Source: an uncultured delta proteobacterium (GTDB taxonomy: Bacteria; Desulfobacterota; Deferrimicrobia; Deferrimicrobiales; Deferrimicrobiaceae). Taken from it: DNA of 64,000 nucleotides. Numbering within the stretch: position 1 is the stretch's first letter; the number at the start of each line of letters is the position of its first letter. Shown here piece after piece: positions 3,660-59,185 of the stretch. The position numbers and the translations under genes are program-made. The DNA lies in NCBI GenBank assembly GCA_963811025.1, contig CAWEPX010000003.1:115190-179189 (forward strand), written 5' to 3'. The notes under the pieces are model-generated. The model worked only from the letters and a program-made list of their open reading frames with translations, searched no databases and was not told the origin of the DNA.

Positions 3660-3753
<94 letters not shown>

Positions 3754-13343: not shown

Positions 13344-13405
13344 ATCGCAGGACGGACATCGAGTCGTTCTGCATGCGTTGACTGTTTTTCCCGAAAGGTG
13401 GAGGA

Positions 13406-14010
13406 ATGGAGAGGATAGAACTCGATGCCGAGGGAAGAGGAACTTCGGGTCCTGCCCGGATTCTCTATCTCATCGTGACCATGCCCGTCGGGGGGGCGGA
13501 GGAGCACCTGCTTTCCCTTGTGCGGATTCTGGACCAGAACCGCTTCGATCCCACGGTCTGCTCCATCGGGGGGAGTGGTCCCATCGGAAGGGAAATCGAG
13601 ACGGGGGGCACCAGGGTCGTGGAGTTGGGAAAACTGAAAGAAGGGGGATACGACGGGAAGATCGTTGCCCTCCTGCATGCCCACCTGTACCACGCCAACA
13701 TGTACGGCCAGCTCGCGGTCTTCAGGGAAGGGGTACCGGCCCTCTGTTCGATCCACAATACCTACGTGCGCCCCAAGCCCCACCACCGTTTCGTCAACTG
13801 GTGTCTCGCACGGGTGACCCCGAGAACCATCGCGGGAACCAAGGCGATCCGGGAGAAAATCCTCGAGCTCTGCAGGAACCGGGACATCGCCAAGTCCAAG
13901 GGGGAATCCGCCCTCGGACGCGTCAGCGAATTTTCCTGGGAGACCTACGATCAACGTCTGGTTTCCCTTTACCGGGAACTTATGGGCGGGAGCCGGCGGG
14001 GTGAACATAC
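13406..14010 (+). pseudogene. GT4 glycosyltransferase remnant (N-terminal domain fused to its C-terminal tail; central catalytic region missing)
   Basis: ILYLIVTMPVGGAEEHLL...HNTYVRPKPHHRFVNW jumps directly to ...FSWETYDQRLVSLYRELMG. It is a paralog of the gene at 14996-16169. Confidence 0.5.
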
Positions 14011-16169: not shown

Positions 16170-16178
16170 GGAGGGACG

Positions 16179-17123: not shown

Positions 17124-17127
17124 CATA

Positions 17128-18297: not shown

Positions 18298-18317
18298 GGA
18301 TCCCGCGGTTTCTCCGC

Positions 18318-41545: not shown

Positions 41546-41767
41546 AGACGCCACCGGACGGAGCAGATAGACAGGATTGCCGACAGTCGGCGTCCGGACG
41601 GTGTTTGTCTGCGGGGCGGAAAGAGCTGCGCAGGAAAAGTCTTCGGTTGAAAACCGAACTGCCGATTCATTATAATGACCGCCGATCAGCACCAGGGCAT
41701 GGTACCTGGCCCTTGGGCTTTTTTTTCCAACGCATTCCCAATTCCATGTTTTTTCGGGAGGTCGCTT

Positions 41768-44431
41768 ATGCCGAGAGCCGCGAAACGGTATGTTTATTTT
41801 TTTGGGGACGGAAAGGCCGACGGAACGGGAAAGATGAGGGACCTGCTGGGCGGAAAGGGGGCGGGCCTGGCGAATATGGTGAACCTGAAGATCCCCGTTC
41901 CCGCCGGATTCACCATCACCACGGAGGCATGCAATACGTACTTCGGGAACGGGAAAAAATATCCACCCGGCATGTGGGACCAGGTTCTATCCAACCTGAA
42001 GAAGGTGGAGAAGGCGATGGGGACGAAGTTCGGGGATGCGAAAGATCCTCTCCTCCTTTCCGTCCGTTCGGGATCGAAATTCTCCATGCCCGGGATGATG
42101 GACACGGTGCTGAACCTCGGACTCAATGACACGACGCTTAAGGCTCTCGTCGCGAAGACGGGCAATGAGCGTTTCGCTCTGGACACCTACCGGAGACTGA
42201 TCTCCATGTTCGGAAGCACCGTCATGGGGATCGACCGGCAGCTTTTCGAAAAGGTTCTGGAAGCGAAGAAGGCGGGCAGGAAGGTCCGTCTTGACACGGA
42301 TCTGACCGTGGAGGATTTACGGGACCTCGTCGGGAAGTTCAAGAAAGTCTTCGAGAAGGAAACCGGGAAAAGTTTCCCGAAGGACCCTCTCCAGCAGCTC
42401 AGGCTGGCCATCAATGCCGTGTTCGACTCCTGGTTCGCCGACAGGGCGGTCACCTACAGAAAACTCAACAATATTTCCCATGATCTCGGAACGGCGTGCA
42501 ACGTCCAGGCCATGGTCTTCGGGAATATGGGCGAGAACTCGGGCACCGGCGTCGGTTTTACCCGGGACCCCTCCACCGGCCAGAAGAAATTCTTCGCCGA
42601 ATACCTCACCAATGCGCAGGGGGAGGACGTCGTGGCGGGGATCAGGACACCACTTCACATCGATGAACTGAAAAGAAAAATTCCCGCCGCGTACAAGGAA
42701 CTGGAAAAGACCTACCGGAAGCTGGAGAGGCACTACAAGGACATGCTGGACATCGAGTTTACCATCCAGGACGGCAAGCTCTACATGCTCCAGACCCGGG
42801 TCGGAAAGCGGACGGCCGCCGCATCCCTGCAGATCGCCATCGACATGGTCAAGGAAAAACTGATCGACAGGAAAACGGCCATCATGCGGATCGACCCCGG
42901 TCAGCTGGATACGCTCATGCACCCGTCCTTTGACCCGAAGGTTCCCGTCAAGGTCATCGGCAAGGGGCTTCCCGCATCGCCCGGCGCCGCGGTCGGCACG
43001 GTCGTGTTCTCCGCGGAAGACGCCGAACAACGGGCCGAACGGGGAGAAAAGGTGATCCTGGTGAGAACCGAGACCTCACCCGAGGATATCGGAGGCATGG
43101 ATGCGGCCCAGGGGATTCTCACTGCCCGGGGAGGGATGACGTCCCATGCGGCCGTTGTGGCAAGGGGGATGGGCAAGTGCTGTGTCGCCGGCTGCTCCGC
43201 GCTCAATATCAACGAAAAGAAGAAGACCATGACCCTGGAGCCGCACACCCTGAAGGAGGGCGATACCATCACCCTCAACGGGACCACGGGGGAAGTCATC
43301 CTGGGGAAGGTTCCCCTCGTGGAACCGGAACTCACGGGGAATTTTCACACCATCATGAAGTGGGCCGATGAGGCAAGGGAGCTCGGAGTCCGGGCCAACG
43401 CCGATACGCCGGCCGATGCCCGCATGGCGCTCAAGTTCGGCGCGGAAGGGATCGGACTCGTCCGCACGGAGCACATGTTCTTCGAGGCGGAGAGAGTGCA
43501 GGCGGTGCGCGAAATGATCCTGGCCGACGACACGGAAGGGAGGAAAAAGGCCCTCAAGAAGATCCTCCCCATGCAACGAAAGGATTTCATCGAGATCTTC
43601 AAGGTGATGAACGGGTTGCCGGTGACCATCCGTCTCCTCGATCCGCCGTTGCACGAATTCCTGCCGAAAACCGATGAGGAACTGAGGGCGATCGCCAAGG
43701 ATCTGGGCGTCCCCTTCCAGAAACTGCAGGCACGCAACAAGGCGCTGCACGAGTTCAACCCCATGCTGGGGCACAGAGGATGCCGGCTCGGCATCACGTA
43801 CCCGGAAATCTCGGAGATGCAGGTCCAGGCCATCATGGAAGCCGCCTGTCATGTGGCCAAGCAGAAGATCAAGGCTATCCCCGAGATCATGATTCCGCTC
43901 ATCGCCGACGTGAAGGAATTTCGCATGATGCGCGAGTTGACGGTGAGGGTCGCCGAAGCGGTGCAGAAGCGGTACGGGGTCAAGGTCCGCTACGATGTGG
44001 GGACCATGATCGAAATCGCCCGGGCGGCCCTGCTGGCCCACGAGATCGCGCCGGAAGCCGACTTCTATTCCTTCGGCACCAACGACCTGACCCAGACGAC
44101 GTACGGCCTGTCGAGGGACGATGCGGGAAGGTTCCTGCCCTACTACGTGGCCCACGGGATCTTCGAGGATGATCCCTTCATCACCCTCGACCGGAAGGGC
44201 GTCGGTCTCCTCATGAGGATGGCCATCACAAACAGCCGGAAGATCAAGAAGGGGATGAAGATGGGGATCTGCGGGGAGCAGGTGGATCCCCGGTCGGTCG
44301 AGTTCTGCGACGAGATCGGACTCACCTATGTGAGCGGCTCCCCGTACCGGTTGCCGGTGGCCCGTCTTGCGGCGGCCCAGACGACGATTGCGAAAAAGAG
44401 GAAAAAGGGCACGTCCCTGTCGTCGGTGTAA
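41768..44431 (+). CDS. ppdK: pyruvate, phosphate dikinase
   Basis: 887 aa. Catalytic His region GGMTSHAAVVARGMGKCCVAG and C-terminal PEP-utilising TIM barrel. Confidence 0.9.
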   Translation: MPRAAKRYVYFFGDGKADGTGKMRDLLGGKGAGLANMVNLKIPVPAGFTITTEACNTYFGNGKKYPPGMWDQVLSNLKKVEKAMGTKFGDAKDPLLLSVRSGSKFSMPGMMDTVLNLGLNDTTLKALVAKTGNERFALDTYRRLISMFGSTVMGIDRQLFEKVLEAKKAGRKVRLDTDLTVEDLRDLVGKFKKVFEKETGKSFPKDPLQQLRLAINAVFDSWFADRAVTYRKLNNISHDLGTACNVQAMVFGNMGENSGTGVGFTRDPSTGQKKFFAEYLTNAQGEDVVAGIRTPLHIDELKRKIPAAYKELEKTYRKLERHYKDMLDIEFTIQDGKLYMLQTRVGKRTAAASLQIAIDMVKEKLIDRKTAIMRIDPGQLDTLMHPSFDPKVPVKVIGKGLPASPGAAVGTVVFSAEDAEQRAERGEKVILVRTETSPEDIGGMDAAQGILTARGGMTSHAAVVARGMGKCCVAGCSALNINEKKKTMTLEPHTLKEGDTITLNGTTGEVILGKVPLVEPELTGNFHTIMKWADEARELGVRANADTPADARMALKFGAEGIGLVRTEHMFFEAERVQAVREMILADDTEGRKKALKKILPMQRKDFIEIFKVMNGLPVTIRLLDPPLHEFLPKTDEELRAIAKDLGVPFQKLQARNKALHEFNPMLGHRGCRLGITYPEISEMQVQAIMEAACHVAKQKIKAIPEIMIPLIADVKEFRMMRELTVRVAEAVQKRYGVKVRYDVGTMIEIARAALLAHEIAPEADFYSFGTNDLTQTTYGLSRDDAGRFLPYYVAHGIFEDDPFITLDRKGVGLLMRMAITNSRKIKKGMKMGICGEQVDPRSVEFCDEIGLTYVSGSPYRLPVARLAAAQTTIAKKRKKGTSLSSV

Positions 44432-44443
44432 GCGAAAACGAAC

Positions 44444-44480
44444 AGGGCTCCCTCCGGTTTCCGGAGGGAGCCCTTGCTTG
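44444..44480. terminator. bidirectional terminator hairpin AGGGCTCCCTCCGG-tttc-CGGAGGGAGCCCT
   Basis: Perfect 14-bp stem between convergent ppdK and ggt. T-rich flank on the minus-strand side. Confidence 0.6.
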
Positions 44481-44501
44481 ACCCTCCTGTCCCGCCCGAC
44501 C

Positions 44502-46290
44502 CTACCACCCTATGGCATAGCCGGTATCCAGGCGCGCCGTCGCCACACCGTGGAGCACTCCGCTGCCGGCATCGTACCGTATGCCGAGAACCCGTCCGTG
44601 GCTCCAATCCCCGCCGACTTCCACCGTATGCCCCTTTTCCCGAAGGGCGGCTATCGTCGACTCGGGGATGCGGCTCTCCAGGTGCATGGTCCCCGGTTGC
44701 GCGCTGTGCGGGTGGAAGGATGCGGGAAAATGGCTCGTGTGGAAAGTGGGCGCGTCGACGGCGACCTGCATGTTCATGCTGAAATCGACGCAGTTTATGA
44801 AGAACTGGAGCGACCACTGGTCTTGCTGGTCCGCCCCCGGTGTCCCGAGCGCCATGAACGGCCTGCCGTCCTTCAGCACAATCGTGGGAGTGAGGGTGGT
44901 GCGGGGACGTTTGCCGGGCTGAAAGGCAATTGGCGTGGCCTTTGTCCAGGTAGAACATCTGCATGCGGGTTCCAAGGGGAAACCCCAGGCCCTCGATGAC
45001 CGGCGAACTTCGGAACCATCCTCCGCTGGGCGTGGCGGACATCATGTTCCCCCACTGATCCGCCGCATCCAGATGGGTGGTGTCTCCCTTGTGGATGTCC
45101 AGGCCTCCCTTCCTTTCCCTGGGCTTTACCGGCGGGGCGTTGCCGGGTCGCAGTTCCAGGGATGCGCATTCCGGGTCGATCAGCGTGCGGCGCTTTGCCG
45201 CGTACGCCTTGGAAAGAAGGATATCGAGGGGAACGTCGACGAAGTCCGGGTCGCCGTAATATTTTTCCCGGTCCGCGAACGCAAGTTTGGCCGTTTCGAT
45301 CAGGAGGTGGATGTATTCGGGGGAGTTGTGTCCCAGGGAGGCCAGGTCGAACCCTTCCAGGATGGTCAACTGCTGCAGGAAGACCGGTCCCTGCGACCAG
45401 GGGCCGCATTTGAAGACGTCGTACCCCCGGTAGTTCGCCGTTACCGGGTCTTCGACCCGGGTTGCGTAGCGAGACAGGTCCTCCTTCGCGATCAGCCCGC
45501 CGTGAAGCTTTCCCGTGGAGTCGGGGAGTCGGCTTTCGGTGATGAACGTGATGATCCGCTTCGCGATCTCTCCCTTGTAGAAGACGTCGTGAGCTGCCTG
45601 GAGCGCTTCCCGACGGCCTCTTCGTCTCTCCCGGGATTCCGCCTCCACGAGCATTGCAAACATCCCGGCAAGGTCCTTTTGGACATAGATCTCCCCCACG
45701 GCCGGAACCCGTCCGTCGGGGAGATAGGCCCGGGCCGAACTCGGCCATTTCTCCAGGAACTGCTCCTTGCTCCGCTCGAAGGCGGACGCAAGTCTTCCGA
45801 ACATGGGGAATCCCCGTTCCGCCAGGTCCATGGCAGGCGAAAGGACCTGCGCAAGTCGCATGGTCCCGAAGCGGGACAGGGCTGCGATCCAGGTCGAGAC
45901 CGCGTCCGGAACGGCGGCGGCCAGCAACCCGTCGCCGGGAATGGTCTCGATCCCGTTCTTCCGGAACCAATCGATGGTCGCTCTTTGCGGGGCGGGTCCC
46001 TGGCCGGAGAGGCTCACTACACGTTTCTCGTCCGCCAGGTAGATCAGGATGGGAACTTCGCCGCCGATGCCGTAAATGTACGGCTCCAGGACGGCCAGGG
46101 CGAATCCCATCGCCACGCCGGCGTCCACGGCGTTCCCGCCCTCCTCGAGAATGTGCAGTCCGATCCTGCTGGCAAGATAATGCCCGGAGGTGACCATTCC
46201 ATGCGTGCCCATGATGACGGGGCGGGTGGTGAACGCCCCCGTGTCGGGACCGGCCAGGATGGAGAGCATATCTCTGGAGTCGGTTGACAT
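44502..46290 (-). CDS. ggt: gamma-glutamyltransferase (apparent frameshift near 44960)
   Basis: N-terminal 450 aa in frame A (TTRPVIMGTHGMVTSGHYLAS...GTRMQMFYLDKGHANCL). C-terminal small subunit in frame B, ORF 44502-44975 (...TPGADQQDQWSLQFF...). Confidence 0.7.
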
Positions 46291-46338
46291 CACGCGCACC
46301 TTCCTTGGACGTTGCGGTTCACGGCTGCCCTTCAAAGG

Positions 46339-48133
46339 TCAGGACTGGCGGAGCCTGTCCCGCAAGGCCTTCAGTTGGACATCGAGGCGTTTCGGGAGGT
46401 GGCTGCCGAACCGGTCGTAGAAGACTTCGATATCGAAGTATTCGGACTTCCAGACATCCGGGTCGAGCCGGAAAAGCTCCTCCATGTCAGCGGGAGGGAT
46501 GGACAGACCCGAAAGATCGAGGTCCCCTTCTTCCGGCAACAGGCCGATGAACGTTTCCCTTGCCCCGACCTTGCCGTCGACCCTGTCGCACATCCATTTG
46601 AGGACCCGGCTGTTTTCGCCGAAGCCCGGCCACAACCATCGTCCGTCGTTCCCCTTGCGGAACCAGTTGACGTAGAAGACCCGGGGGGCCTTTTCCCCAG
46701 CCTGACCCCCATCTCGAGCCAGTGCTGGAAGTAGTCTCCCATGTTGTATCCGCAGAAGGGCTTCATGGCGAAGGGGTCACGGCGCACCCGGGAGACCTTG
46801 TCGAGGATGGCTGCGGTGCTTTCCGAGGAGGCCGAGGAGCCCAGGAAGACTCCATGGTCCCAATTGAATGCCTCGAAGACCAGGGGCACCGCTGCGGACC
46901 GGCGCCCGCCGAAAAGGAAGATGTCGATCGGGATCCCCTCGGGATCCTCCCAGTCACGGATGGCGCTCGGGCACTGGCCGATGTGGGCGGTGAAGCGGGC
47001 GTTGGGGTGGGCCGCAGGTTCTTCCTCGTCCGGCGTCCAGTCCCAACCCTTCCAGTCGATGAGGTGGGACGGGACCGGCCCGTCCATCCCTTCCCACCAG
47101 ACATCCCCGTCGTCGGTCAGGGCGCAGTTCGTGAAGATGATGTTCTCCTTCAGCATCTCTGCCGCGACCGGGTTGGATCCGTAGGAAGTGCCCGGGGCCA
47201 CGCCGAAGAGGCCCGTCTCCGGGTTGATGGCATGCAGTCGTCCGTCCGGACGGATTTTCATCCAGCAGATGTCGTCGCCGATGGTTTCGGCCGTCCAGCC
47301 GGGGATGGTCGGCTTGATCATCGCCAGGTTCGTTTTTCCGCACGCGGAAGGGAAGGCGGCGGCGATGTGGTACTTCCGTCCCTCCGGGCTTACGAGGCGA
47401 AGGATCAGCATGTGCTCGGCCAGCCAGCCTTCCCGCCGGGCGATCGCCGAGGCGATGCGCAGGCTGAGACACTTCTTGCCCAGCAGGGCGTTCCCTCCGT
47501 AGCCGGATCCGTAGGACCAGATCAGGTTTTCCCGGGGGAAATGGCTGATGTACTTGTCTTCTATGGGTGCGCAGGGCCAGTGGACGTCATGCTGCCCCGG
47601 CTCCAGGGGGGACCCCACGGAATGCAGACAGGGGATGAACTCTCCCTCGGTGCCAAGCGCCTCCAGAACCCGGGAGCCGACCCGGGTCATGAGGTGCATG
47701 TTGCAGACCACGTAGGGGCTGTCCGAGATCTGCACGCCGATCTTGGCCAGAGGCGATCCGACGGGTCCCATGGAGAAGGGGATGACGTACATCGTGCGCC
47801 CCTTCATGCAGCCGTCGTACAGGCCCTTCATGGTGGTTTTTCAGCTCGACGGGATCGATCCAGTTGTTGGTGGGGCCGGCCTCCTCCGCGGTAGGGGTGC
47901 TGAGGTAGGTGCGCGCCTCGATCCGGGCGACGTCGCTGGGATCGGACCGGAAGAGGAAGCTGTTCGGCCGCTTCTTGAAGCGGGATGGCGGTTCCGCTTT
48001 CCACCATCATCGTCATCAATCGGTCGTACTCTTCCCTGGAGCCGTCGGCCCAGGAGATCCGGTCGGGCCGGCACATGGCCGCAACTTCCTCGACCCAGCG
48101 CGTAAGCCCGGCGTGTCTGCATGTCACCGTCAT
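46339..48133 (-). CDS. pckG: phosphoenolpyruvate carboxykinase (GTP) with at least three frameshifts (~46640, ~47836, ~47990)
   Basis: The kinase-1a/GTP-binding regions are present but split between ORFs 47828-48235, 46371-47831 and 46339-46635. The 47836 shift is an A5 run where A4 restores VELKTTMKGL. Confidence 0.7.
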
Positions 48134-48451
48134 AGGATCATCCCCCCGTCGGTTTTCTTGTCGCGTGCTTTCCCTTCTTAAGGATGCGCGTTTCCTGCGA
48201 ATCCCGGGACTACCGTTAAGAAACTGGTTTCCCATATCCTTGCGCTGGCGATCGTGAACGACGCCGGTTAGAAAAAAATTATGGGACCGTCAGGAGGAGG
48301 GCAGGACACTTCCCTCCGGAGTCCGGAAAAGGGTTCCGGGAAAAAGCTACCCGTGATGAACAATGGGCAACCGGCAACCGATCACGAATCGCCGTGAGCA
48401 CTTGCCCGTGCGGACCGGCAACGGCGGATTCACGGGAAAGACCGGATGCGT

Positions 48452-48943
48452 TTAGCTCGGTCCTCCGCAATAGTGGGTCAGGACAGCGTACCGTGACTGC
48501 GACATGATCTTCGTCGCGACGGTTCCGAACAAGGCCCCCATGGCCCCCGGGTTGCCATGCGTCGAGATGAAAATGAGGTCGCAGCCTTTTTCCTTGGCCA
48601 CCTTGAGGATGCCGTCCACAGGGGATTTTTCCGTAACCTGAACCGTCTCGCACGGCACTCCGACCTCGGCGCACATCTTTTCCGCCACCTCGAGCGCCTT
48701 GGTCGCCAGTTCCTTACGGGACTCCTCCAGGTGCGCCATGTCATCCTGGAGCCTCTTGGCGTCCGAGCGAGCCGATAACGATTCGACCGAATACACCTCC
48801 AGGATTTCACGGGCGCTGAGCTTACCCGTGACATGGACCGCGATGATTTTTGCGTTCAGTTCTTTGGCCAGGAGAATCCCGTGGCAGGTACCGTACGCGC
48901 ATTTCCCCAACCCATCTGTCGGCAAGAGGATGTTCTTGTACAT
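48452..48943 (-). CDS. uspA: universal stress protein (UspA family)
   Basis: MYKNILLPTDG...ATP-binding G-x2-G-x9-G(S/T) region (FISTHGNPGAMGALFGTVATKI). 163 aa. Confidence 0.8.
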   Translation of the reverse strand: MYKNILLPTDGLGKCAYGTCHGILLAKELNAKIIAVHVTGKLSAREILEVYSVESLSARSDAKRLQDDMAHLEESRKELATKALEVAEKMCAEVGVPCETVQVTEKSPVDGILKVAKEKGCDLIFISTHGNPGAMGALFGTVATKIMSQSRYAVLTHYCGGPS

Positions 48944-49143
48944 GCGTTCTCCTTCGTCTGCACCCGGCCGGTATTCCCGGGTCCCGAGATGTGATTGCGT
49001 GCCGATTGTGAAGGAATTGGAAACGCATGTCAAGAGAGAGGTGTTGTGCGAACGTTCTTCGTGCGAGCATTGTCGAATCGGAAAGGGGAGCCGGGGTATT
49101 CGCGTCATTTCCTCCGGCGAGTGTATTTGGCATTACGAATACA

Positions 49144-49153
49144 GGGGGGGGGG
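49144..49153. repeat. G10 homopolymeric tract in the uspA/cdc48 divergent intergenic region
   Basis: acaGGGGGGGGGGttg counted directly from the sequence. Confidence 0.7.
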
Positions 49154-49240
49154 TTGTCTCGACATCTCTTCCGGGAGATGTATACTGTACACCTTAACCC
49201 CTTAAGAAATATGGTTGTTGCGGATCACTCGTATTTTCCC

Positions 49241-49269
49241 TTGACAGGGGGTTCCGGTTAAACATATTC
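49241..49269 (+). promoter_or_regulatory. sigma70-like promoter TTGACA-N17-ATATTC upstream of the cdc48-like gene
   Basis: Canonical -35 with a 17-bp spacer. Lies immediately 5' of the operator pair. Confidence 0.55.
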
Positions 49270-49271
49270 TC

Positions 49272-49306
49272 TGGTCTGACCATCAGTCCTAACGCTGGTC
49301 AGACCA
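49272..49306. promoter_or_regulatory. two FadR/GntR-type operator palindromes TGGTCTGACCA and TGGTCAGACCA
   Basis: 11-bp palindromes TGGTC-N-GACCA 24 bp apart centre to centre, overlapping the predicted transcription start. Confidence 0.6.
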
Positions 49307-49345
49307 CCCAACAACTGGCTTTAAATCAATGGTTAGAACGGTAGG

Positions 49346-51514
49346 GTGATGAAGACGCAGGTGAAACGAAAAGATGAGTTCTCGCTGCGCATAGTCAAAG
49401 CTTTTATCGAGGATGAGGGCAAGGGCCTTGCCCGCGTGGATGAGGATGTCATGAAGAGTCTGGGGGCCGTCCCCGGCGACGCTGTCATGATTACCGGCCG
49501 CCGGTCCACAGTCGCCCGCATTGCCCAGACCACCGCTAATTACTCCGGACAGAACCTGATTCAGGTAGACGGCATCACGAGGGACAATGCCCAGGTATCG
49601 GTGGACGAATGGTGCACCATCCAGAAGGTCCCGTTCAAGCAGGCCGACACCTTGATCCTCACCCCTGCCGATCCCCGCAGGCCGATCCCCAAAGATGCCG
49701 AGATCCGTCATATCATTCAACTTCTGGCAGGAATCCATGTGGTCATCGGAGACAAGGTCCAGATCGCACTCTTCGGAACCACGCCGCAGTTCTTCATCGT
49801 GGAAGGAGCGAGCCCGAGAGGGGCCCTCCGGATCACTCCCCATACGACGATAACCTTCCGGGCTTCCGATTATTCCTATGAAAAGGCATTCCGGGCAACT
49901 TACGAGGATATCGGGGGGCTGGAACACGAGCTTCGCAGTGTTCGGGAGATGATCGAGCTTCCCCTGAAGTTCCCCGAACTCTTCACCACGCTCGGGATCG
50001 ATCCCCCGCGGGGGGTTCTCCTTTCCGGACCTCCGGGAACGGGAAAGACCCTCATCGCAAGAGCCATTTCCAACGAGGTCCGGGCCCATTTCATCCACGT
50101 CAACGGCCCCGAAGTCATCCACAAGTTCTACGGGGAGAGCGAGGCGAAGCTCAGGATGGTCTTCGAGGAGGCCCGCAAGAACGCTCCCAGCATCATTTTC
50201 CTCGATGAGATGGACGCTCTCGCACCGAGGAGGGCGCATGTCGTCGGGGATGTGGAAAAGCGGGTGGTGGCGCAGCTTCTCGCCCTGATGGATGGGCTCG
50301 TCGCCCGGGGAGAGATCGTGATCATCGGCGCCACGAACATGCCGGAACTGGTCGATCCGGCTCTTCGCCGTCCCGGACGTTTCGACCGCGAAATCACCAT
50401 CGGCGTCCCGAACCGGGCGGATCGCCTCCAGATCCTGAAAATCCATTCCCGCAAGATGCCGCTCGCGGCGGATGTGGACCTGGTTCGTCTGGCGGAAATC
50501 ACCCATGGGTACGTCGGGGCGGACCTTGCCGCCCTCTGCTCGGAGGCAGGCATGGCGACGCTGCGTCGCATCATGCCCGGGATCAAATTCGAAGTGGATG
50601 CGAAGCCCAGCCTGCCAGATGATGCGATGGTCGAGGTTACCGCGGAAGATTTTCTGACCGCGTTCAAGTCGGTCGAGCCCACATCGACCCGGGAGTTCAT
50701 GAGCGAGAGGCCTCGCGTCTCCTTCAAGGATGTGGGGGGATCGCATGAGATAAAGCAGAAACTCCTGTCCCTCATCCGGCTTCCCTTGCTCGGTCTGCCC
50801 GTCTTCTCCCAATCCCGCGTGGGCCCCCCCAAGGGCGTTCTCTTCACCGGCGCCTCCGGTACGGGGAAAACCCTTATGGCAAGGGCTCTTGCAGGGGAGA
50901 CGGGAATGACCCTCATCTCCGTCGATCCTCCCACCCTTCTGTCGAAGTGGGTGGGGGAATCGGAAAAGGGCTTGCGGGAGGTCTTCAAGCGGGCCAAACA
51001 GGTATCCCCGTGCATCGTGCTCATCGACGAGGTCGAAGCCATCGCCCCGTCCCGGACCGCGGAAGATTCCGGCCGTATCTCCCAGAGGATCGTCAGCCAG
51101 CTCTTCCGGGAGCTCGATGATCTCCAGAGCTCATTGGGGATCGTGGTCATCGCCACCACCAATCGCGTGGATCTGATGGAGCCGGCGCTGCTCAGGTCCG
51201 GGCGCTTCGATTACGCCATCGAATTTTCTCTTCCCGACAGAGAGGACAGGATCGAGATACTGAATATATTCATGCAGAAGCTTCCTTTGGATAACCGGAT
51301 CGACATCGAAATCCTCGCCGACATGAGCGAAGGGTGGACGGGGGCGGATATCGAGGCCATGTGCAAGAAGGCGGTCCTGCTGGCGATGGAAGAGTGCCTG
51401 CAAAAAGACGAGCGGCCCGATTTTTCACGTTGCAAGATCACCTCGCGGCATTTCGAGCAGGCAATCGAACTGGGGACCTCCGCGACGGTCCATTCCGGGG
51501 CGACGAGGCACTGA
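49346..51514 (+). CDS. CDC48/VCP-like AAA+ ATPase (N-domain plus two AAA modules)
   Basis: Two Walker A motifs (GPPGTGKTL, GASGTGKTL) and two second-region-of-homology segments. N-terminal CDC48_N-like domain. 722 aa. Confidence 0.85.
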   Translation: MMKTQVKRKDEFSLRIVKAFIEDEGKGLARVDEDVMKSLGAVPGDAVMITGRRSTVARIAQTTANYSGQNLIQVDGITRDNAQVSVDEWCTIQKVPFKQADTLILTPADPRRPIPKDAEIRHIIQLLAGIHVVIGDKVQIALFGTTPQFFIVEGASPRGALRITPHTTITFRASDYSYEKAFRATYEDIGGLEHELRSVREMIELPLKFPELFTTLGIDPPRGVLLSGPPGTGKTLIARAISNEVRAHFIHVNGPEVIHKFYGESEAKLRMVFEEARKNAPSIIFLDEMDALAPRRAHVVGDVEKRVVAQLLALMDGLVARGEIVIIGATNMPELVDPALRRPGRFDREITIGVPNRADRLQILKIHSRKMPLAADVDLVRLAEITHGYVGADLAALCSEAGMATLRRIMPGIKFEVDAKPSLPDDAMVEVTAEDFLTAFKSVEPTSTREFMSERPRVSFKDVGGSHEIKQKLLSLIRLPLLGLPVFSQSRVGPPKGVLFTGASGTGKTLMARALAGETGMTLISVDPPTLLSKWVGESEKGLREVFKRAKQVSPCIVLIDEVEAIAPSRTAEDSGRISQRIVSQLFRELDDLQSSLGIVVIATTNRVDLMEPALLRSGRFDYAIEFSLPDREDRIEILNIFMQKLPLDNRIDIEILADMSEGWTGADIEAMCKKAVLLAMEECLQKDERPDFSRCKITSRHFEQAIELGTSATVHSGATRH

Positions 51515-51540
51515 ATCCTCGAGTGGTATCGGGGGGGAGA

Positions 51541-52278
51541 GTGCGGGAAAAACTGAAATTGTTCAAGCCGGTCAAAAAAACCAGGGTCTACGAGGAAATC
51601 GTTGTCAAGGTCAAGGAGATGATCGAGCAGGGCAAGCTCAAATCGGGAGACCAGCTACCCGGGGAACGGGAGCTTTCCGATGTGTTCCGCGTGAGCCGGT
51701 CCTCCGTTCGGGAAGCGCTCCGTTCCCTGGAGAGCAAGGGATATCTCGAAAGCCGTCAGGGCGACGGGACGTACATCGCCAGTCAGTCCGTGGAGTCCCT
51801 GGTCAGCACCCTGGCTTCCGTCATCTCTTCGGAGAAGGACAGCCAGATGGAACTTTTCGAGATGCGCCGGCTGATCGAACCCCAGCTTGCCTACCTCGCC
51901 GCGGAACGGGCCACCGAGGAGGAGATCGCCCAGATGGAGGAAGCCCTGGTCCTGCAGGAAGAGGCGATCGCCAGAGGGGAAACGGGAACGGAGGTTGACA
52001 AGGCGTTTCATTACATCATGGCAAACGCAACGAAAAACAAGGTTCTTCTCCGCCTGGCCGACCACATGAGGGATCTCCTGGCGGAAAGTCGGGACAAGTA
52101 CCTTCAGGTGGAGGGAAGACCGGATAAGTCCATAGCGCGTCACAGACAGGTGCTAGACGCGATCAAGGCGAGGGACGCAGATCTCGCCGCGCAAGTCATG
52201 CGCGACCACGTGCAAGATATCGAGAACTGTCTGTTCGCGGGAAATTATCACAAAGAAAGGGGGGATGCCCCGGCGTAG
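51541..52278 (+). CDS. GntR-family transcriptional regulator (FadR/FCD subfamily)
   Basis: N-terminal wHTH (GDQLPGERELSDVFRVSRSSVREALRSLESKGYL) and a helical FCD domain. GTG start. Confidence 0.75.
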   Translation: MREKLKLFKPVKKTRVYEEIVVKVKEMIEQGKLKSGDQLPGERELSDVFRVSRSSVREALRSLESKGYLESRQGDGTYIASQSVESLVSTLASVISSEKDSQMELFEMRRLIEPQLAYLAAERATEEEIAQMEEALVLQEEAIARGETGTEVDKAFHYIMANATKNKVLLRLADHMRDLLAESRDKYLQVEGRPDKSIARHRQVLDAIKARDADLAAQVMRDHVQDIENCLFAGNYHKERGDAPA

Positions 52279-52371
52279 ACGGGAAAGGGGGCGGTTTCGG
52301 GAAGCCGTTCATCATTTGCAAGGCAGTGATCGGACAGTCGCTTTGAGTAGAAAAAAAGGAGGAAAGACACG

Positions 52372-53013
52372 ATGTCTAATGTCGCAACAGCAAAAGCTGC
52401 TCAAGACCTATACGAAATCACAATCTGGTGCAGTGGAGTTACCCAGGACATGGAAGGAAGGCACCTGTCGCTCCTGCTCGCCAACGCCGCGAGCAAGGAC
52501 GGCAAGCACACCCAGGCATGGGACAACTACGCGGACCTGCCGGACCGGGTCGGCGTTCCCCTGCGGAAGTACACGCGCATCTGCGACGAAGAGATCGAGA
52601 TGCGGTACCTCTATGAGAATGCCACGCCGAACATGTCCATCGTCATGAACGACGCGATCGTCAAGGGGATCGACGTCCTGAGAGGCATGGAGAAGGGCGG
52701 GGTGCTCGTCGTCAACACCAAGAGGCCTGTGGACGAGATCCTGAAGCTCATTCCCAACAAGGATATCCTCAGCGCCATCGTAACCGTGGATGCCACCGGC
52801 ATCGCGGGCGGATCCGGACTGGAAAGCCTCGATTTCATGGGTTCGGAAGGCGGCGTGGAAGCTACCGCCGTCGGAGCCGGGCTGTCGGCGCCGCTGGTCG
52901 GCGCGGCCGCGAAGGTGTGCGACAAGTTGACACTGGAGAGCCTGGTCGCGGTTGCGGCGAACAAGGCCGGAGTGAAAGAGGGCAACAAGCAGGCAGTAGT
53001 AAAAACTCTATAA
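52372..53013 (+). CDS. porG: 2-oxoacid:ferredoxin oxidoreductase gamma subunit
   Basis: 213 aa. POR gamma fold (NTKRPVDEIL...). Strong AAAGGAGGA RBS. Confidence 0.8.
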   Translation: MSNVATAKAAQDLYEITIWCSGVTQDMEGRHLSLLLANAASKDGKHTQAWDNYADLPDRVGVPLRKYTRICDEEIEMRYLYENATPNMSIVMNDAIVKGIDVLRGMEKGGVLVVNTKRPVDEILKLIPNKDILSAIVTVDATGIAGGSGLESLDFMGSEGGVEATAVGAGLSAPLVGAAAKVCDKLTLESLVAVAANKAGVKEGNKQAVVKTL

Positions 53014-53033
53014 GTCACTGGAAGGAGAAGGTT

Positions 53034-53381
53034 ATGAGCAAAAAGTACAACGAAAACTTCAATATTCCGAAGCACCTCGAGGTCCCCATGGGCGCGGTTA
53101 TCCCGGCGCCGGTGAAGGAACAGCCGGCGATGAAGACCGGCAACTGGCGGACCGAGCGTCCCGTCATCGATCACGAGAAGTGCACGCTGTGTCTGAACTG
53201 CTTCGCGTACTGCCCGGACTCGAGCTGGCATCTGGACGACAAGGGCGAGCGGATGGTCTGGGATCCGATCTACTGCAAGGGCTGCCGGATCTGCGTCGAG
53301 GTCTGCCCGGCCGACGCTCTTCGCAACGAAAACGAGCTGGATTTCAAAGGCGGCGTGGCCCGTCTGGATAAACCCTACTAG
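53034..53381 (+). CDS. porD: 2-oxoacid:ferredoxin oxidoreductase delta subunit (2x[4Fe-4S] ferredoxin)
   Basis: CTLCLNCFAYCP and CKGCRICVEVCP clusters. 115 aa. Confidence 0.85.
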   Translation: MSKKYNENFNIPKHLEVPMGAVIPAPVKEQPAMKTGNWRTERPVIDHEKCTLCLNCFAYCPDSSWHLDDKGERMVWDPIYCKGCRICVEVCPADALRNENELDFKGGVARLDKPY

Positions 53382-53403
53382 AGATAAAGAGGAGGAATTT
53401 CAA

Positions 53404-54598
53404 ATGGCAAAAGAAACAGTCATGGCGGGTTGTTCCGCCGCCGCACACGCCGCCAAGGCCGCGAGGGTCGAGGTGATCAGCTCCTACCCGATCCGTCCGT
53501 ACACCGGCATCATGATGGAGCTGTCGAAACTGGTCGCCAACGGGGACCTCGACGCCGAATTCGTGCACGGAGAGGGCGAGCATGCCCAGGTCTCCATCGC
53601 GTTGGGCGCTTCCGCCTCCGGGGCGAGGGCATATACCGGAAGCTCGGGCGTCGGCGTGACCTACGCCATGGAAGTCTACTCCCCGACCGCCGGCGGGCGC
53701 TATCCCCTTCAGATGTCGATCGCCGATCGCGCCCTGGATCCTCCCGGAGACTTCGGTTCCGAGCACACCGACGTCATGAGCGCCCGGGACCAGGGATGGA
53801 TCATGGGCTGGGCGGAGACGCCCCAGGAAGTCTTCGACAACACTCATCATGTATTACAAGATCGGCGAAGACTCGACGGTGATGCTGCCCCAGTTCTGCT
53901 GCCAGGACGGCTACTTCGTCTCCCACATCCCGGGCAAGGTGTCCATCCCGGAGCAGTCCCAGGTGGACGAGTTCCTGCCTGCCTACAAGCCGCACCTTCC
54001 GCTCGATCCGACGAGGCCGTCGTCTCACGGTCCCCAGATCTATCCCGACCAGGGATCGGCGATCGACATCCAGAGGGCGATAGCCATGATCAACACCCCG
54101 AAGGTGATCGAGAAAGCCGTTGCGGACTTCAACAAGCAGTTCGGCCGGAACTACAGCCCCTTCGTGGAAGAGTACAAGTGCGACGACGCCGACTTCGTCT
54201 TCTTCCTCCAGGGCGCCCATTGCCGGACCGCCCGGTATGCCGTAGACCACCTCCGGAAGCAGGGGGCCAAGGTCGGAATGGTGAAGCTGCGCTTCGTGCG
54301 TCCCTTCCCCACCGAAGCGGTCGCGGAGAGCCTCAAGAAGTTCAAGGCGGTGGGAACCATCGAGACCAGCACTTCCTACGGCGGGGCCATGAAGGGCGGA
54401 AACCTCATTCACGAGGTCCGGTCGGCCTGCTACGATCTGCCCAAGGGACCCGCGATCACATCGTTCATGGCCGGACTCGGAGGGGAAGTGGTTACCCTGG
54501 AAGAGTTCTACAAGATGGCGAAGATCCTCGCCGAGGCGGCAAAGAAGGGAGCGATCGATCAGTACGTCTACTGGGTGAATTTCGACAAAGGGATATAG
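53404..54598 (+). CDS. porA: 2-oxoacid:ferredoxin oxidoreductase alpha subunit (apparent +1 insertion near 53842)
   Basis: Frame A reads MAKETVMAGCSAAAHAAKAARVEVISSYPIRP... to ...EVFDN. Frame B continues ...LIMYYKIGEDSTVMLPQFCCQDGYFVSH... to the end. Confidence 0.75.
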
Positions 54599-54663
54599 AT
54601 AACGATAAAACTATTTCGCTTGTCAGAATGGAACATTACCGCTGATAAGCATACAAGGAGTGA

Positions 54664-55650
<987 letters not shown>

Positions 55651-55925
55651 TGAATCGGGCATAAACGTGTATCGTTTTTCCCGCTTGCGAAACATGTGAA
55701 CGGAAGCAAGTGGGTTTGAATGAAAGCGAGGGAAACGTCGTTTCCTGTTGAAGGTCCCTGGGTACCGGCAGCGCTCCCGAGAAATGTCCCCCGGAGAGCG
55801 TTGCCGGACCTGAGGGGAATCCTGGCAACCACATAGGAGGAGGGAGGTGGGGAAAAGAGGGGTTGGAAGCTGCTAGAGGTGGCTGTAGGGGGCACATGGT
55901 CTGCAATCTTCCTAATGGAGGTGTG

Positions 55926-56906
55926 ATGACTATGCGTGTTCTAAGATTCCGGTTCGCCGTTCCGTTACTGCTTTCGGTCGCGTTAATCTTCTGCTTCGTG
56001 GACATGGCAGCGGCCGCATGGCCGGACAAACCTGTTGAATTCACGATCTCCGCAGGTGTGGGGGGCGGGGCGGACAAATACGCCCGGTTCCTGGTCGGCC
56101 TCAACGTAAAGAACCACTACATTTCCCAGCCGATTATTCCCGTCAACAAGCCGGGCGGGGCCGGGGCCGTGGCTATGCAGTCGGTGTTGAGCCAGAAGGG
56201 CAACGGGTACCAGATGCTCATCACCCTGAACAGCTTCATCACCACCCCCCTGTTCCAGAATCTGCCCTTCACGTACCGTGACTTTACCCCCATCGCACTC
56301 TTGGCCCTGGACAACTTCCCCCTCTGGGTCAAAAAGGACGCCCCGTGGAAAACGGCGATGGACTTCATAAATGACGCCAAGAAACGGACCATCATCGTCG
56401 GAGGGACGGGATCCAAGCAGGAAGATGAGATCGTCTTCCGTGCCATCCAGAAGATCATGGAAACCAAACCGTTCAAATATGTTCCCTTCAAGGGCGGCGG
56501 CGCCGTGGCCAAGGCACTGGTGGGCGGGCATGTCGAAGCCACCGTGAACCAGGTCAGCGAGGCGGGCCCCTTCTTCCCGGATTATTTGCGTCCCCTTTGT
56601 GTCTTCCAGGAAAAGCGGCTGGATATTCCGGGCTACGAGGATGTCCCCACCGGCAAGGAAGCGGGGATCGATTTCAACTACAACATGATGCGGGCGATCT
56701 TCGCTCCTCCGGCCATCTCCAAGGAGGCCCAGGACGGACTGGTGGGGCTGTTCAAGAAGATCTCCGATGGACAAGGACTGGGTAGCGTTCGCCAAGAAAA
56801 CCGGTCTGCAGAGGGATTTCATCACCGGCGACGCACTGATGAATTTCTGCGCGCAGTACGAGAAAAAGCACATCGAGATCATGAAGGCGCAAGGCTGGAT
56901 CAAGTA
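55926..56906 (+). CDS. tctC: tripartite tricarboxylate transporter substrate-binding protein TctC (frameshift near 56775)
   Basis: Bug/TctC family (signal peptide; GGGADKYARFL...). The conserved C-terminus ...KDWVAFAKKTGLQRDFITGDALMNFCAQYEKKHIEIMKAQGWIK is in the alternate frame. Confidence 0.7.
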
Positions 56907-57016
56907 ACCCGTTACATCGAGGGAGGGACTGTTTTTTAACGGCAATTCGAACGGGGGGTGTAGGGTCGAGTAAAACACCTTGCACCCCCCTTTACAAACC
57001 ACCTTGGGAGGCTGAA

Positions 57017-57487
57017 TTGAAAAGAGGTGAGTTGATCGTTGGGGCGGCATTTATCCTCCTTGCTGTCATCGTGATTGGCGACATGTACCGGATCGGCTCC
57101 GGATGGACGGAATCTGGCCCCGACGCGGGGTTTGTCCCCTTCTGGGAAGGCGTGCTCATGCTGGTCTCCGCCATTATCATATTTGTCGGCGGATTGAAGG
57201 AAAAAGGCGGCGAAAACTTCTTCGTCAGCAAAGAGGGATTCTGGGAGGCGGTCCGGATAACCTTCACGTCGGTCCTCCTGACCGTCGGGTTCATCTTCCT
57301 GGGAGCATACTTCTCCACATTTCTCTACTCCATCCTGTTCGCCCGCTGGCTGGGAAAGCATCGCTGGGTTTCATGCATTGCCTTTGCCGTCATTATCACC
57401 GCGTTCATTTTCTTCGGCATGGAGAAGGGATTGAAGATCACTTTGCCCAAGAGCCCGCTTTACGCGAGAGATTTGTTTATTTTCTAG
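57017..57487 (+). CDS. tctB: tripartite tricarboxylate transporter small membrane protein TctB
   Basis: 4 TM, 156 aa, between tctC and tctA. TTG start. Confidence 0.7.
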   Translation: MKRGELIVGAAFILLAVIVIGDMYRIGSGWTESGPDAGFVPFWEGVLMLVSAIIIFVGGLKEKGGENFFVSKEGFWEAVRITFTSVLLTVGFIFLGAYFSTFLYSILFARWLGKHRWVSCIAFAVIITAFIFFGMEKGLKITLPKSPLYARDLFIF

Positions 57488-57661
57488 GGAAAAAGAGTGG
57501 AAACGGGATTGCGCGATGAGCGGGGTTGTTCCGTTCATCTGCCTCCCGTTAACTTGATCAATACGGATTGTTAATAAAGATGTATTGCCACATCAGCGTG
57601 GAGGCGTTTCAAAGGTTCGGACATGCCGTTTGCTAGAACACCATAGGAACGGGAGGCATAG

Positions 57662-59185
57662 ATGGAAACCTTGGCTCACCTAATGACGGGATTCGGGGTG
57701 GCACTCCAGCCCTTCTCTTTGCTGATGATGACCCTCGGGCTTCTTCTGGGTCTTGCGGTCGGCGTTTTGCCGGGGCTGGGCGGTACGGCGGGTGTGGCTC
57801 TGCTGTTGCCCCTCACCGTCCTCGTTGCCCCTGAGGTTGCGATCATCTTCCTGGCCGCCATTTACTGGGGGGCCCTCTTCGGAGGGGTGATCACATCCGT
57901 GCTGTTCGCCATCCCGGGGGAACCGTGGTCGGTGGCGCTCATCTTCGACGGGTACCCGATGTCGAAACAGGGGAAATCGGGGCTGGCGCTGGCGACCTCC
58001 TTTCTCGCTTCCTTCGTCGGGATCATCATCGCGGCCGTCTTTTTCGTGGCCGCCGCGCTGCCCCTGGCCCTCCTTGCTCTTCGTTTCGGTCCCCCGGAGA
58101 TGTTCGCGATCATGATGCTGGCCTTCAGCACCTTCGTGGGGCTGGGAACCGGCAAGCCCTCGAAGACCCTGGTGAGCACCTCCTTCGGGCTGCTCCTGAC
58201 GGCGGTGGGCCTGGATATCGTCACGGGCAAGCCCCGGTTGAACTTCGGATCGATCACCTGGCTCAGCGGCTTCCATTTCGTTCCGATAACCATCGGCATG
58301 TTCGGTCTGGGGGAGATCCTGATCGACGGCGAGGACCGGTTCTCCACGGTGATCCGGGAGAAAGTAATCGCCAAGGTAGGCTGGAAAGACGTCAGGGAAG
58401 CATGGAGCGAGATCTGGAAGTTCTTCCCACAGACGATTGCCGCCTCCGTCATGGGCTTCTTCGTAGGGGTTCTCCCCGGGACGGGGGCGACGCCCGCCTC
58501 CTTCCTCGGCTACGGCCTTGCCAAACAGTACTCCAAGGATCCGGACAAGTACGGCAAAGGGGCAATCGAAGGGATCATCGCTCCCCAGGCGGCCGCCAAC
58601 GCGGCGGGTACCGGCTCCCTGCTCCCCATGATCACCCTGGGCATCCCCGGCTCCCCGACCGCGGCCGTCCTTCTGGCGGGCCTCTACATGTGGGGCCTGT
58701 GGCCCGGTCCGAGGCTCTTCCTGGAGCAGCCGGTCTTCGTCTGGGGACTTATCGCCAGTCTCTTCCTGGCCGGCTTTGTCTGCCTGATCATCTGCCTCGT
58801 CGGCACGCCGATGCTGGCCTCCATCATGAAGGTGCCCTGGGGTATCCTCACCCCGATCATCGTGGTCGCCTGCTTCGTCGGCAGCTTCGTGATGCGCAAT
58901 CTCATGTTCGACGTCTGGTGCACGCTCATCTTCGGGGTGATCGGGTACATCATGAAGAAGCTCAAATACCCGCTTGCTCCGCTGGCCGTGGCCCTCGTGC
59001 TCGGTGACATGACGGAGCGGTTCCTCCGGCAGTCCCTGATCCTGAGCGACGGATCGTTTGGCATCTTCTTCACCCGTCCCATCGCGGCCGTATGCTCGTC
59101 GTTCGCCCTTCTCCTTTTCCTGCTCCCGGTCGTCAAGATCATCCGGGGGAAGAAAAAGGCCAAGGCTACCATCGGACCGGGATGA
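57662..59185 (+). CDS. tctA: tripartite tricarboxylate transporter large permease TctA
   Basis: 507 aa polytopic. Conserved GxxxGxLPGxG motifs (LGLAVGVLPGLGGTAGVAL; FFVGVLPGTGATPASF). Confidence 0.85.
   Translation: METLAHLMTGFGVALQPFSLLMMTLGLLLGLAVGVLPGLGGTAGVALLLPLTVLVAPEVAIIFLAAIYWGALFGGVITSVLFAIPGEPWSVALIFDGYPMSKQGKSGLALATSFLASFVGIIIAAVFFVAAALPLALLALRFGPPEMFAIMMLAFSTFVGLGTGKPSKTLVSTSFGLLLTAVGLDIVTGKPRLNFGSITWLSGFHFVPITIGMFGLGEILIDGEDRFSTVIREKVIAKVGWKDVREAWSEIWKFFPQTIAASVMGFFVGVLPGTGATPASFLGYGLAKQYSKDPDKYGKGAIEGIIAPQAAANAAGTGSLLPMITLGIPGSPTAAVLLAGLYMWGLWPGPRLFLEQPVFVWGLIASLFLAGFVCLIICLVGTPMLASIMKVPWGILTPIIVVACFVGSFVMRNLMFDVWCTLIFGVIGYIMKKLKYPLAPLAVALVLGDMTERFLRQSLILSDGSFGIFFTRPIAAVCSSFALLLFLLPVVKIIRGKKKAKATIGPG

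Follow-up and report, generated by a model that had tools for sequence, protein, structure and literature searches.

Regulators of the FadR subfamily of GntR proteins recognise operators of the T.GT-N-AC.A type, and in the pdhR-aceEF-lpdA operon of Escherichia coli such an FCD-domain repressor is encoded in its own operon, together with a thiamine pyrophosphate (TPP)-dependent 2-oxoacid-oxidising enzyme and with a TGGT-N3-ACCA operator at the promoter. Moorella grows on oxalate, and its oxalate oxidoreductase (OOR), which is oxalate-induced, has been purified, assayed and crystallised. AAA+ motors such as Rubisco activase and CbbQ/CbbO work beside one enzyme prone to dead-end inhibited states, and the rescue of inhibited enzymes by AAA+ activases is an established principle. 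These systems serve as comparisons for the 64-kb stretch of DNA analysed here (hereafter the window; 64,000 nt of contig CAWEPX010000003.1 from an uncultured delta proteobacterium), where a gene for a Cdc48-like double-ring AAA+ ATPase (here cdc48) is followed by a GntR-type regulator gene (gntR), four OOR-type genes (oorGDAB) and a tripartite transporter (tctCBA). Judged from its sequence features, the locus is probably a FadR-type autoregulated oxalate-catabolism operon led by a Cdc48-like ATPase in Candidatus Deferrimicrobiaceae (MBNT15).

Upstream of the ATPase gene, a first-pass annotation of this DNA had read a sigma-70 promoter (TTGACA-N17-ATATTC) followed by two TGGTC-N-GACCA palindromes, and direct reading together with a motif search recovered all of these elements at 49241-49306 (Table 1), with CATATT and TATTCT as alternative -10 registers, 13 nt between boxes 1 and 2, and the ATG of the ATPase at 49349. 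A palindromic operator of the subfamily type is thus present twice at the cdc48 promoter. The possibility raised with that reading, namely that further copies of the motif are distributed at random, found no support: in a search of the window for TGGTCNGACCA, boxes 1 and 2 were the sole matches at zero or one mismatch, exact sites were expected 0.12 times by chance, none of 100 shuffled sequences contained two or more, and the 16 sites observed at two mismatches, against 35 expected, indicate no enrichment elsewhere.

Phylogenetic footprinting strongly supports the same promoter and operator reading. Comparative loci were collected starting from the regulator, four through exact-protein look-ups and 79 through a metagenome scan, and yielded numerous regulator orthologues at 65-99% identity; the nearest genome locus, L001, is that of a Candidatus Deferrimicrobiaceae metagenome-assembled genome (MAG) whose ATPase is 97% identical to that of the window, the lineage being the former candidate phylum MBNT15 (PMC9386147). 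The 37 loci that extend far enough upstream gave 36 distinct promoters. TTGACA is unchanged in every one of them (36/36), -10-like hexamers (TATGCT, TATTAT, TATGTT and similar) stand at the same distance as in the window, and the intervening spacer of 17-18 nt is unconserved in sequence. Box 1 is found with at most one mismatch in all 36, at a fixed offset from TTGACA and beginning 1-3 nt past the -10 element. One to three boxes occur per promoter; most promoters have a second, at 24, 30 or 46 bp, and one sub-clade carries three exact boxes at spacings of 24 and 22 bp.

Over the resulting 81 boxes, the counts by position are T68/C13, G81, G81, T80, C73, N, G81, A77, C80, C69 and A79, so that conservation is 84-100% across the ten arm positions and the centre is free (A25/T21/G18/C17), as would be expected if a dimeric protein read two arms of 5 bp each. 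No exact box was found outside the cdc48 promoter in the ten loci scanned end to end, and in loci of the L082 type, where the upstream gene is a co-oriented gamma-glutamyltransferase (GGT)-family gene and not the divergent usp, promoter and boxes are unchanged, which assigns the boxes to the cdc48 promoter. Altogether, they are very probably functional operators of that promoter. More distant regulator homologues at 57-63% identity (L137-L139, L141, L147) occur in unrelated contexts without boxes or on frame-damaged short contigs, and a frame-damaged homologue at 35% identity (L162) likewise gave no support for an ancestral gntR-oor arrangement lacking cdc48.

At the level of the operator, the closest described counterpart is LldR of Corynebacterium glutamicum (cgl2917-lldD; PDB 2DI3), which binds an 11-mer identical to box 1, TGGTCTGACCA, with a Kd of ~81 nM at a site spanning -4 to +13, over the transcription start (PMC2602784). 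In an alignment to PDB 2DI3 the recognition helices are nearly identical (VSRSSVREAL in the window regulator, VSRSSLREAL in CgLldR), and CgLldR is an FCD-domain protein that represses until a small carboxylate releases it, as is predicted for the window protein. The window regulator is nevertheless distant from CgLldR (68.8 bits, under the LldR equivalog cut-off); one strong and one weak operator in C. glutamicum contrast with two or three strong ones here, and the genes controlled are a lactate permease and dehydrogenase there and an AAA+ ATPase and OOR here.

The regulator itself contains a GntR domain (PF00392, residues 17-79, 75.5 bits against a cut-off of 27) and an FCD domain (PF07729, residues 104-225, 107.8 bits against 24.3) whose histidines match the FH, H-R and H positions in NanR, LldR and PdhR when aligned. 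Its gene starts 27 nt past the ATPase stop codon, and tblastn bore out the earlier statement that this is the only GntR/FCD regulator gene in the window. Scores against NCBIfam equivalogs fall below the cut-offs for NanR (149.1 vs 260 bits), PdhR (138.1 vs 330) and LldR (135.1 vs 311). The family match to E. coli PdhR therefore stops short of equivalence (138 bits against 330), and the operons differ as well: pdhR is the first gene of its operon, whereas the regulator gene is second here, behind the AAA+ ATPase, and the enzyme in the window is a ferredoxin-dependent oxalate oxidoreductase.

That last assignment replaces an earlier one. The four genes downstream of the regulator had been taken for a porGDAB operon, and they match the NCBIfam OOR equivalogs instead. 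The beta subunit, whose next-best family is PorB at 311 bits, is 67% identical to OOR beta of Moorella glycerini, and its orthologue in the orthologous locus L081 gives 474 bits to PDB 5c4i_C. The window alpha gene shifts from frame 1 to frame 2 relative to L081 and in this frame-broken state reaches 254 bits on NF045791, against a cut-off of 500; its full-length counterpart in L081 gives 584.8 bits. Gamma covers model positions 11-207 of the 316 in NF045790 and the L081 delta orthologue positions 221-315 (95.8 bits), the cut-off of 230 having been set for the fused protein of Moorella; gamma and delta are two genes in Zhaonella and a Clostridium sp. MAG as well. By these family matches the genes are those of oxalate oxidoreductase, not of pyruvate:ferredoxin oxidoreductase (POR). 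The genome paper on the lineage reports POR and 2-oxoacid oxidoreductases and leaves oxalate unmentioned (PMC9386147).

Table 1. Features of the locus, with positions in the window (L081 and L082 are orthologous loci; n/a, not applicable)
Feature	Position	Strand	Basis or remark
Second palindrome-like element, GTATACTGTACAC	49180-49192	n/a	49 nt upstream of the -35; membership uncertain
-35 hexamer of the cdc48 promoter, TTGACA	49241-49246	+	Read directly; promoter scan
-10-like hexamer, ATATTC	49264-49269	+	17-nt spacer from the -35; promoter scan
Operator box 1, TGGTCTGACCA	49272-49282	n/a	Begins 3 nt past the -10 hexamer
Operator box 2, TGGTCAGACCA	49296-49306	n/a	24 bp from box 1, start to start
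Cdc48/VAT-type double-ring AAA+ ATPase, 721 aa (N-domain, D1, D2), first gene	49349-51514	+	Pfam
FadR-subfamily GntR regulator (winged helix-turn-helix + FCD), 245 aa, GTG start	51541-52278	+	Pfam
OOR gamma-type subunit (N-terminal part of the Moorella fused delta)	52372-53013	+	NF045790, 210.8 bits (cut-off 230, set for the fused protein)
OOR ferredoxin-like delta subunit	53034-53381	+	tblastn with L081 PorD, 90% identity
OOR alpha subunit	53404-54598	+	Reading frame broken near 53844
OOR beta (TPP-binding) subunit	54670-55650	+	NF045792, 592.1 bits (cut-off 590)
tctC, tctB, tctA, tripartite tricarboxylate-type transporter	55932-59185	+	Pfam TctC/TctB/TctA in L081 and L082; synteny

Equally important is the extent of the transcription unit. 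The order cdc48-like ATPase, gntR, oorGDAB is kept in ~65 loci whose regulators are at least 64% identical to that of the window, wherever flanking DNA exists and without a counter-example among them, and tctCBA lies downstream of the OOR genes wherever a contig extends so far. The gap between gntR and oorG measures 47-116 nt with a single exception among the loci (93 nt in the window) and includes a strong ribosome-binding site, AAGGAGGAA. This spacer holds no box (none at up to two mismatches in front of oorG, in agreement with the first-pass annotation), no consensus promoter and no T-tract terminator, and the folding of the window copy is no stronger than that of shuffled sequence (z = 0.56). 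Co-transcription of the OOR genes from the box-controlled promoter is hence the simplest reading, and the transcript is likely, on these features, to take them in.

For the transporter genes the situation is less clear. The spacer between oorB and tctC is likewise without a box or consensus promoter, and it holds a GC-rich hairpin (window 55766-55808; -48.5 kcal/mol, z = -5.4) without a U-tract; in single-sequence folds, stems of differing sequence occupy the same place in every sub-clade (including L081, L082, L089, L103, L107 and L143). This hairpin could be a terminator or an intercistronic stabiliser, which leaves membership of tctCBA in the same transcript uncertain. A conserved block, GGGGGCACATGGTCTG(A/C)A...CCTAA(A/T)GGAGG, stands just 5' of tctC in most sub-clades (window 55890-55925); it is looser in some (...GGTCT/GGTCA...) and contains one TGGTCTG half-site of the operator motif.

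The leading gene encodes a complete type II ATPase. Pfam assigns it CDC48_N (63.9 bits), two PF00004 AAA domains and two AAA_lid_3 domains; CDC48_2 is marginal in the window protein (22.5 bits against a threshold of 22.4, with the N-terminal 195 aa scanned alone) and reaches 42.6 bits in the Moorella orthologue, which aligns without gaps, and on these matches the N-domain is intact. Walker A, Walker B and pore loop 1 motifs are present in D1 (GPPGTGKT, IIFLDE, KFYGESE) and in D2 (GASGTGKT, VLIDE, KWVGESE), the pore loops of both rings being aromatic, and TIGR01243 is matched over model positions 3-708 of 733 at 777.6 bits, slightly short of its cut-off of 802.65. In domain layout (CDC48_N and CDC48_2, two AAA rings, Walker motifs, aromatic pore loops) the protein therefore resembles archaeal Cdc48/VAT and actinobacterial Cpa. 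It differs from these in being encoded in a metabolic operon and in belonging to a separate OOR-linked bacterial clade; moreover, the HbYX tail carried by many archaeal Cdc48 proteins is absent from the window ATPase (tail ...HSGATRH), which has no proteasome context, and from all OOR-linked ATPases.

Bacterial Cdc48 proteins outside Actinobacteria have been treated as sporadic transfers from archaea with no function assigned (PMC6017811). A genome-contig scan with the ATPase found homologues in Bacillota, Chloroflexota, Syntrophales, Lentisphaerae and others, so that of the earlier remark on bacterial homologues the intact N-domain stands, and their rarity outside Actinobacteria is better put as sporadic occurrence than as absence. 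The scan was dominated by archaeal Cdc48, since its peptide patterns held generic AAA motifs, and it returned a single close relative (L001), the orthologues reached via the regulator being missed; its other 79 loci had no box and no OOR or GntR neighbours.

As minor features of the protein, the C-termini in the Deferrimicrobia clade (window 51490-51514) end in a basic residue and His (ATRH, AMRH, EMKH, QVKH) in 6/9 of those listed, and an N-terminal extension of ~65 aa (MSKDG...VDS...), deduced from in-frame DNA upstream of the tblastn match, is apparent in the ATPases of L103, L105, L107, L113, L114, L116 and L140. The sub-clade with this extension is the one with three exact boxes.

Adjacency of the ATPase and OOR recurs well beyond this lineage. 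A Moorella OOR beta query, mostly rebuilt from a PDB alignment, led to nine OOR loci from other lineages. In Moorella glycerini (L164) the order is gntR, cdc48, oorDAB, permease; in Zhaonella formicivorans (L165) gntR, cdc48, oorGDAB, permease; in a Clostridium sp. MAG (L169) gntR, cdc48, oorGDAB and a major facilitator superfamily (MFS) transporter; in a Joint Genome Institute (JGI) contig (L171) gntR, cdc48 and oorG overlap one another; and a Firmicutes MAG (L172) has gntR, cdc48, oor and a permease. Caldinitratiruptor microaerophilus (L167) has a two-component system, cdc48 and, after a 30-nt gap, oorDAB, and JGI contig L168 has oorGDAB, cdc48 and an MFS transporter. LysR-linked OOR-like genes make up the remaining two loci, with a split cdc48 6 kb off in an NCBI MAG (L170) and no cdc48 within 9 kb in JGI contig L166. 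The ATPase thus directly adjoins OOR in seven of the nine, independently of gene order and of regulator or transporter type, and lies 6 kb off in an eighth; five of the seven also have an adjacent FCD regulator. In L167 (17336-18951), 7 kb downstream of the OOR cluster, there is in addition a second gntR(FCD)-cdc48 pair with a 4-nt gap and a GGTATACC-type palindrome to itself; the cdc48 next to OOR in that genome follows a histidine kinase and response regulator instead.

The Moorella-type cluster (5C4I; L164, L165) is accordingly the nearest counterpart in gene content, with FCD regulator, Cdc48-like ATPase and OOR side by side and a transporter behind them, an ATPase 51% identical and an OOR beta 67% identical to those of the window, and a palindromic GntR-type site upstream of cdc48. 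It departs from the window in its order (gntR-cdc48-oor), in a regulator only 26% identical, in its palindrome (GGTATACCGTATACC), in the fusion of gamma and delta in Moorella, and in a lactate-permease or MFS transporter where the window has TctCBA.

Phylogeny of the ATPase, which had been proposed as a check, points in the same direction. Neighbour joining of 100 Cdc48 homologues (bootstraps from a 52-taxon set; without a verified Cpa sequence) places the OOR-linked ATPases, that of the window included, in one clade with the unlinked bacterial L034 in 98/100 bootstraps, and the other bacterial and archaeal Cdc48 proteins, none of which has OOR or GntR neighbours, fall outside it. Pairwise distances of ATPase and OOR beta correlate (r = 0.88; 0/2000 permutations in a Mantel test), which fits co-inheritance. 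The 2010 OOR paper of Pierce et al. may already mention the neighbouring cluster. Literature searches found no title or abstract linking OOR with Cdc48 or an ATPase and no paper combining Moorella, Cdc48 and oxalate, the first descriptions of OOR by Pierce et al. (2010, 2017) lying outside the search.

These data bear directly on the earlier proposal of an autoregulated cdc48-gntR unit, under which the two genes would form a self-contained module for a general quality-control unfoldase and the OOR genes a separate operon. Such a module could account for the missing box ahead of oorG (at up to two mismatches), for the 93-nt spacer with a small hairpin behind gntR in the window, for the gntR-cdc48 pair in L167 that is not directly joined to OOR genes, and for the clade member L034, which has no OOR nearby. 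It fits poorly with a spacer that lacks a consensus promoter, a T-tract terminator and any unusual folding (z = 0.56), with a gene order that is invariant throughout the clade, with the adjacency of ATPase and OOR in 7/9 distant loci, including an overlap of cdc48 and oorG in L171 and the 30-nt gap in L167, and with the distinct clade formed by the OOR-linked ATPases. We therefore regard a two-gene module as improbable: of the earlier proposal, the operators and likely autoregulation are retained, and the separation from an independent por operon is given up in view of gene order, spacer and recurrent adjacency.

A different question is which protein reads the boxes. They might be bound by a distal FadR-family regulator, for example an LldR- or PdhR-like lactate or pyruvate sensor, leaving the adjacent regulator with other targets or with the GTATAC-type palindrome near the same promoter. 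This would suit the exact identity of TGGTCTGACCA with the CgLldR operator, the occurrence of similar recognition helices in many FCD regulators, the resemblance of that second palindrome to the Firmicute OOR operator, and the JGI label of the orthologues as PdhR-type repressors. However, boxes and adjacent regulator co-occur at every orthologous locus, the ten loci scanned end to end contain no exact box away from the promoter, and the 64 kb hold no GntR gene besides the one next to cdc48. Operator type also switches together with the type of the neighbouring regulator across lineages: next to Firmicute-type OOR genes the FCD regulator is 26% identical to that of the window, and the palindrome upstream of gntR and/or cdc48 is GGTATACC-N-GTATACC (L164, L165, L169, L171, L172 and the second pair of L167). 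A distal regulator is accordingly a poor candidate, and the constant co-occurrence and parallel shift argue that the adjacent regulator is the cognate binder, which probably binds boxes 1 and 2.

The proposal that the boxes act as RNA, in an 11-bp 5'-untranslated-region hairpin serving as attenuator or stability element, was rejected for want of covariation and, together with chance occurrence, which the shuffle test excludes, merits hardly any weight: the boxes are mutual reverse complements and the 83-nt leader of the window folds at -28.5 kcal/mol (z = -2.8), but pairing is open to every duplicated palindrome, covariation is absent at the independent positions (Watson-Crick central pairs occur in 7/28 loci and arm deviations are compensated in 0/30), box number and spacing vary, box 1, 3 nt past the -10 hexamer, would be only partly transcribed, and 48400-56100 has no Rfam match.

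On the preferred reading of an oxalate-catabolism operon under its own repressor, the FCD protein encoded by the second gene would bind the two operators directly downstream of the sigma-70 promoter as dimers. From the promoter geometry, box 1 would cover the transcription start and box 2 would lie ~20 nt downstream (about +20 to +30), so that initiation or early elongation would be blocked. A small carboxylate would then bind the FCD domain and release the repressor; oxalate, favoured as the pathway substrate, is the leading candidate for this effector, an identification held tentatively. Transcription would run through the ATPase gene, the repressor gene (hence autoregulation) and the four OOR genes, possibly into tctCBA, the likely uptake system.

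Within such an operon, the ATPase could serve as a dedicated remodeller of OOR, in assembly, in reactivation by stripping a dead-end cofactor adduct, or in removal of damaged enzyme, and whether it acts on OOR at all is evenly balanced on present evidence. A paper of 2017 by Pierce et al. reportedly concerns, to go by its title, suicide inactivation of OOR by pyruvate; together with the AAA+ activase principle, this report favours assembly or reactivation. The ATPase could alternatively degrade damaged enzyme or act on the repressor itself. In its most specific form, in which the ATPase would use ATP to assemble or reactivate OOR as its dedicated client, for example by releasing a pyruvate-derived TPP adduct, and would be co-induced with it through an oxalate-sensing FCD repressor, the proposal is rather unlikely to hold in full. 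The comparison with Rubisco activase and CbbQ/CbbO is a works-like analogy only, resting on the proposed remodelling of one enzyme: the motors there are the single-ring Rca or a MoxR protein, whereas a type II Cdc48 is found here, with a TPP/[4Fe-4S] enzyme as the putative client.

Several observations weigh against this interpretation. Binding, transcript and ligand are predictions from sequence features, and the regulator's scores below the NanR, PdhR and LldR cut-offs leave the effector unreadable from homology. The second palindrome by the promoter suggests additional regulation, which the proposed model leaves aside. Transcripts could be delimited by the weak hairpin behind gntR in the window or by the stable, conserved hairpin between oorB and tctC. 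The correlation of ATPase and OOR beta distances could simply mirror a shared species phylogeny, the clade member L034 has no OOR nearby, and no Cdc48 gene occurs within 9 kb of the OOR-like genes in L166. Finally, the frame breaks in porA, tctC, the phosphoenolpyruvate carboxykinase (PEPCK) gene and the GGT-like gene could reflect gene decay.

The regulation described here is ordinary and comparable to that of LldR and PdhR; the coupling of Cdc48 to OOR is the interesting part. OOR is already known from Moorella, and its presence in Deferrimicrobiaceae corrects the annotation of the "por" genes, from which it follows that MBNT15/Deferrimicrobia, widespread bacteria of sediment and peat, probably oxidise oxalate anaerobically. 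The cross-phylum coupling suggests a candidate client and thereby makes the role of an orphan class of bacterial Cdc48 testable. If true, it would for the first time give the sporadic archaeal-like Cdc48 of proteasome-less bacteria a defined role in the cell, and would be the first case of a Cdc48-type motor tied to one metabolic enzyme; if the ATPase is needed for OOR activity, this would bear on heterologous OOR expression for oxalate removal or CO2 chemistry.

Further elements accompany the boxes at the cdc48 promoter. The heptamer TCAG(T/G)CC, right behind box 1 (window 49283-49289) and kept in most promoters, could be an extended operator contact or initially transcribed sequence. The upstream element GTATACTGTACAC is one mismatch from GTATACNGTATAC, the core of the palindrome in Firmicute-type OOR loci. 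Several Deferrimicrobia sub-clades have, close to the cdc48 promoter, a GTATAC-N-GTAYAC palindrome resembling the Firmicute OOR-locus element GGTATACCGTATACC; in the window clade it stands upstream of the -35 (49180-49192), in the L082 clade it stands between the boxes (3751-3763), and in the L134 clade it replaces box 2 (3754-3766), the related sites being at 4407-4419 in L164, 3511-3523 in L165 and 4545-4557 in L169. The window copy overlaps TCGACA-16-TATACT, an alternative promoter-like site, and by its sequence it may be the site for a second regulator.

The reading frames of ATPase and regulator are intact in the window. Relative to orthologues, frame changes occur in porA (53404-54645) near 53844, in the PEPCK gene (46342-48133) at three places, in the GGT-like gene (44505-46287) near 44984 and in tctC (55932-56904) near 56700; judged from the sequence, these four broken genes in 14 kb may be assembly indels. 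On the upstream side, the divergent usp (48452-49108, minus strand) probably starts at ~48943, giving 163 aa as in orthologues, and not at 49108, which makes the usp-cdc48 intergenic region ~405 bp. This region contains a conserved minus-strand promoter-like site (TTGACA-17-CACAAT, 49033-49005) and a run of ten G (49144-49153) whose length and sequence differ from those in L001 (GGGGGGAGAAAA) and which is likely a hotspot of sequencing error or slippage.

Farther out, pyruvate phosphate dikinase (41675-44431, plus strand) and the GTP-dependent PEPCK (46342-48133, minus strand) are encoded in the upstream flank, and a pyruvate phosphate dikinase gene is also found near the Caldinitratiruptor OOR cluster (L167 14173-16590). 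GGT-family (N-terminal nucleophile hydrolase) genes adjoin the cluster in the window (44326-46335, minus strand), in L081 (1-783) and in L082 (1882-3672), scoring below the gamma-glutamyltransferase equivalog cut-off, and L171, an unrelated locus, has three more copies on the downstream side of OOR (13389-18951). The GGT family includes oxamate amidohydrolase, an activity that, by analogy, would feed oxalate to OOR.

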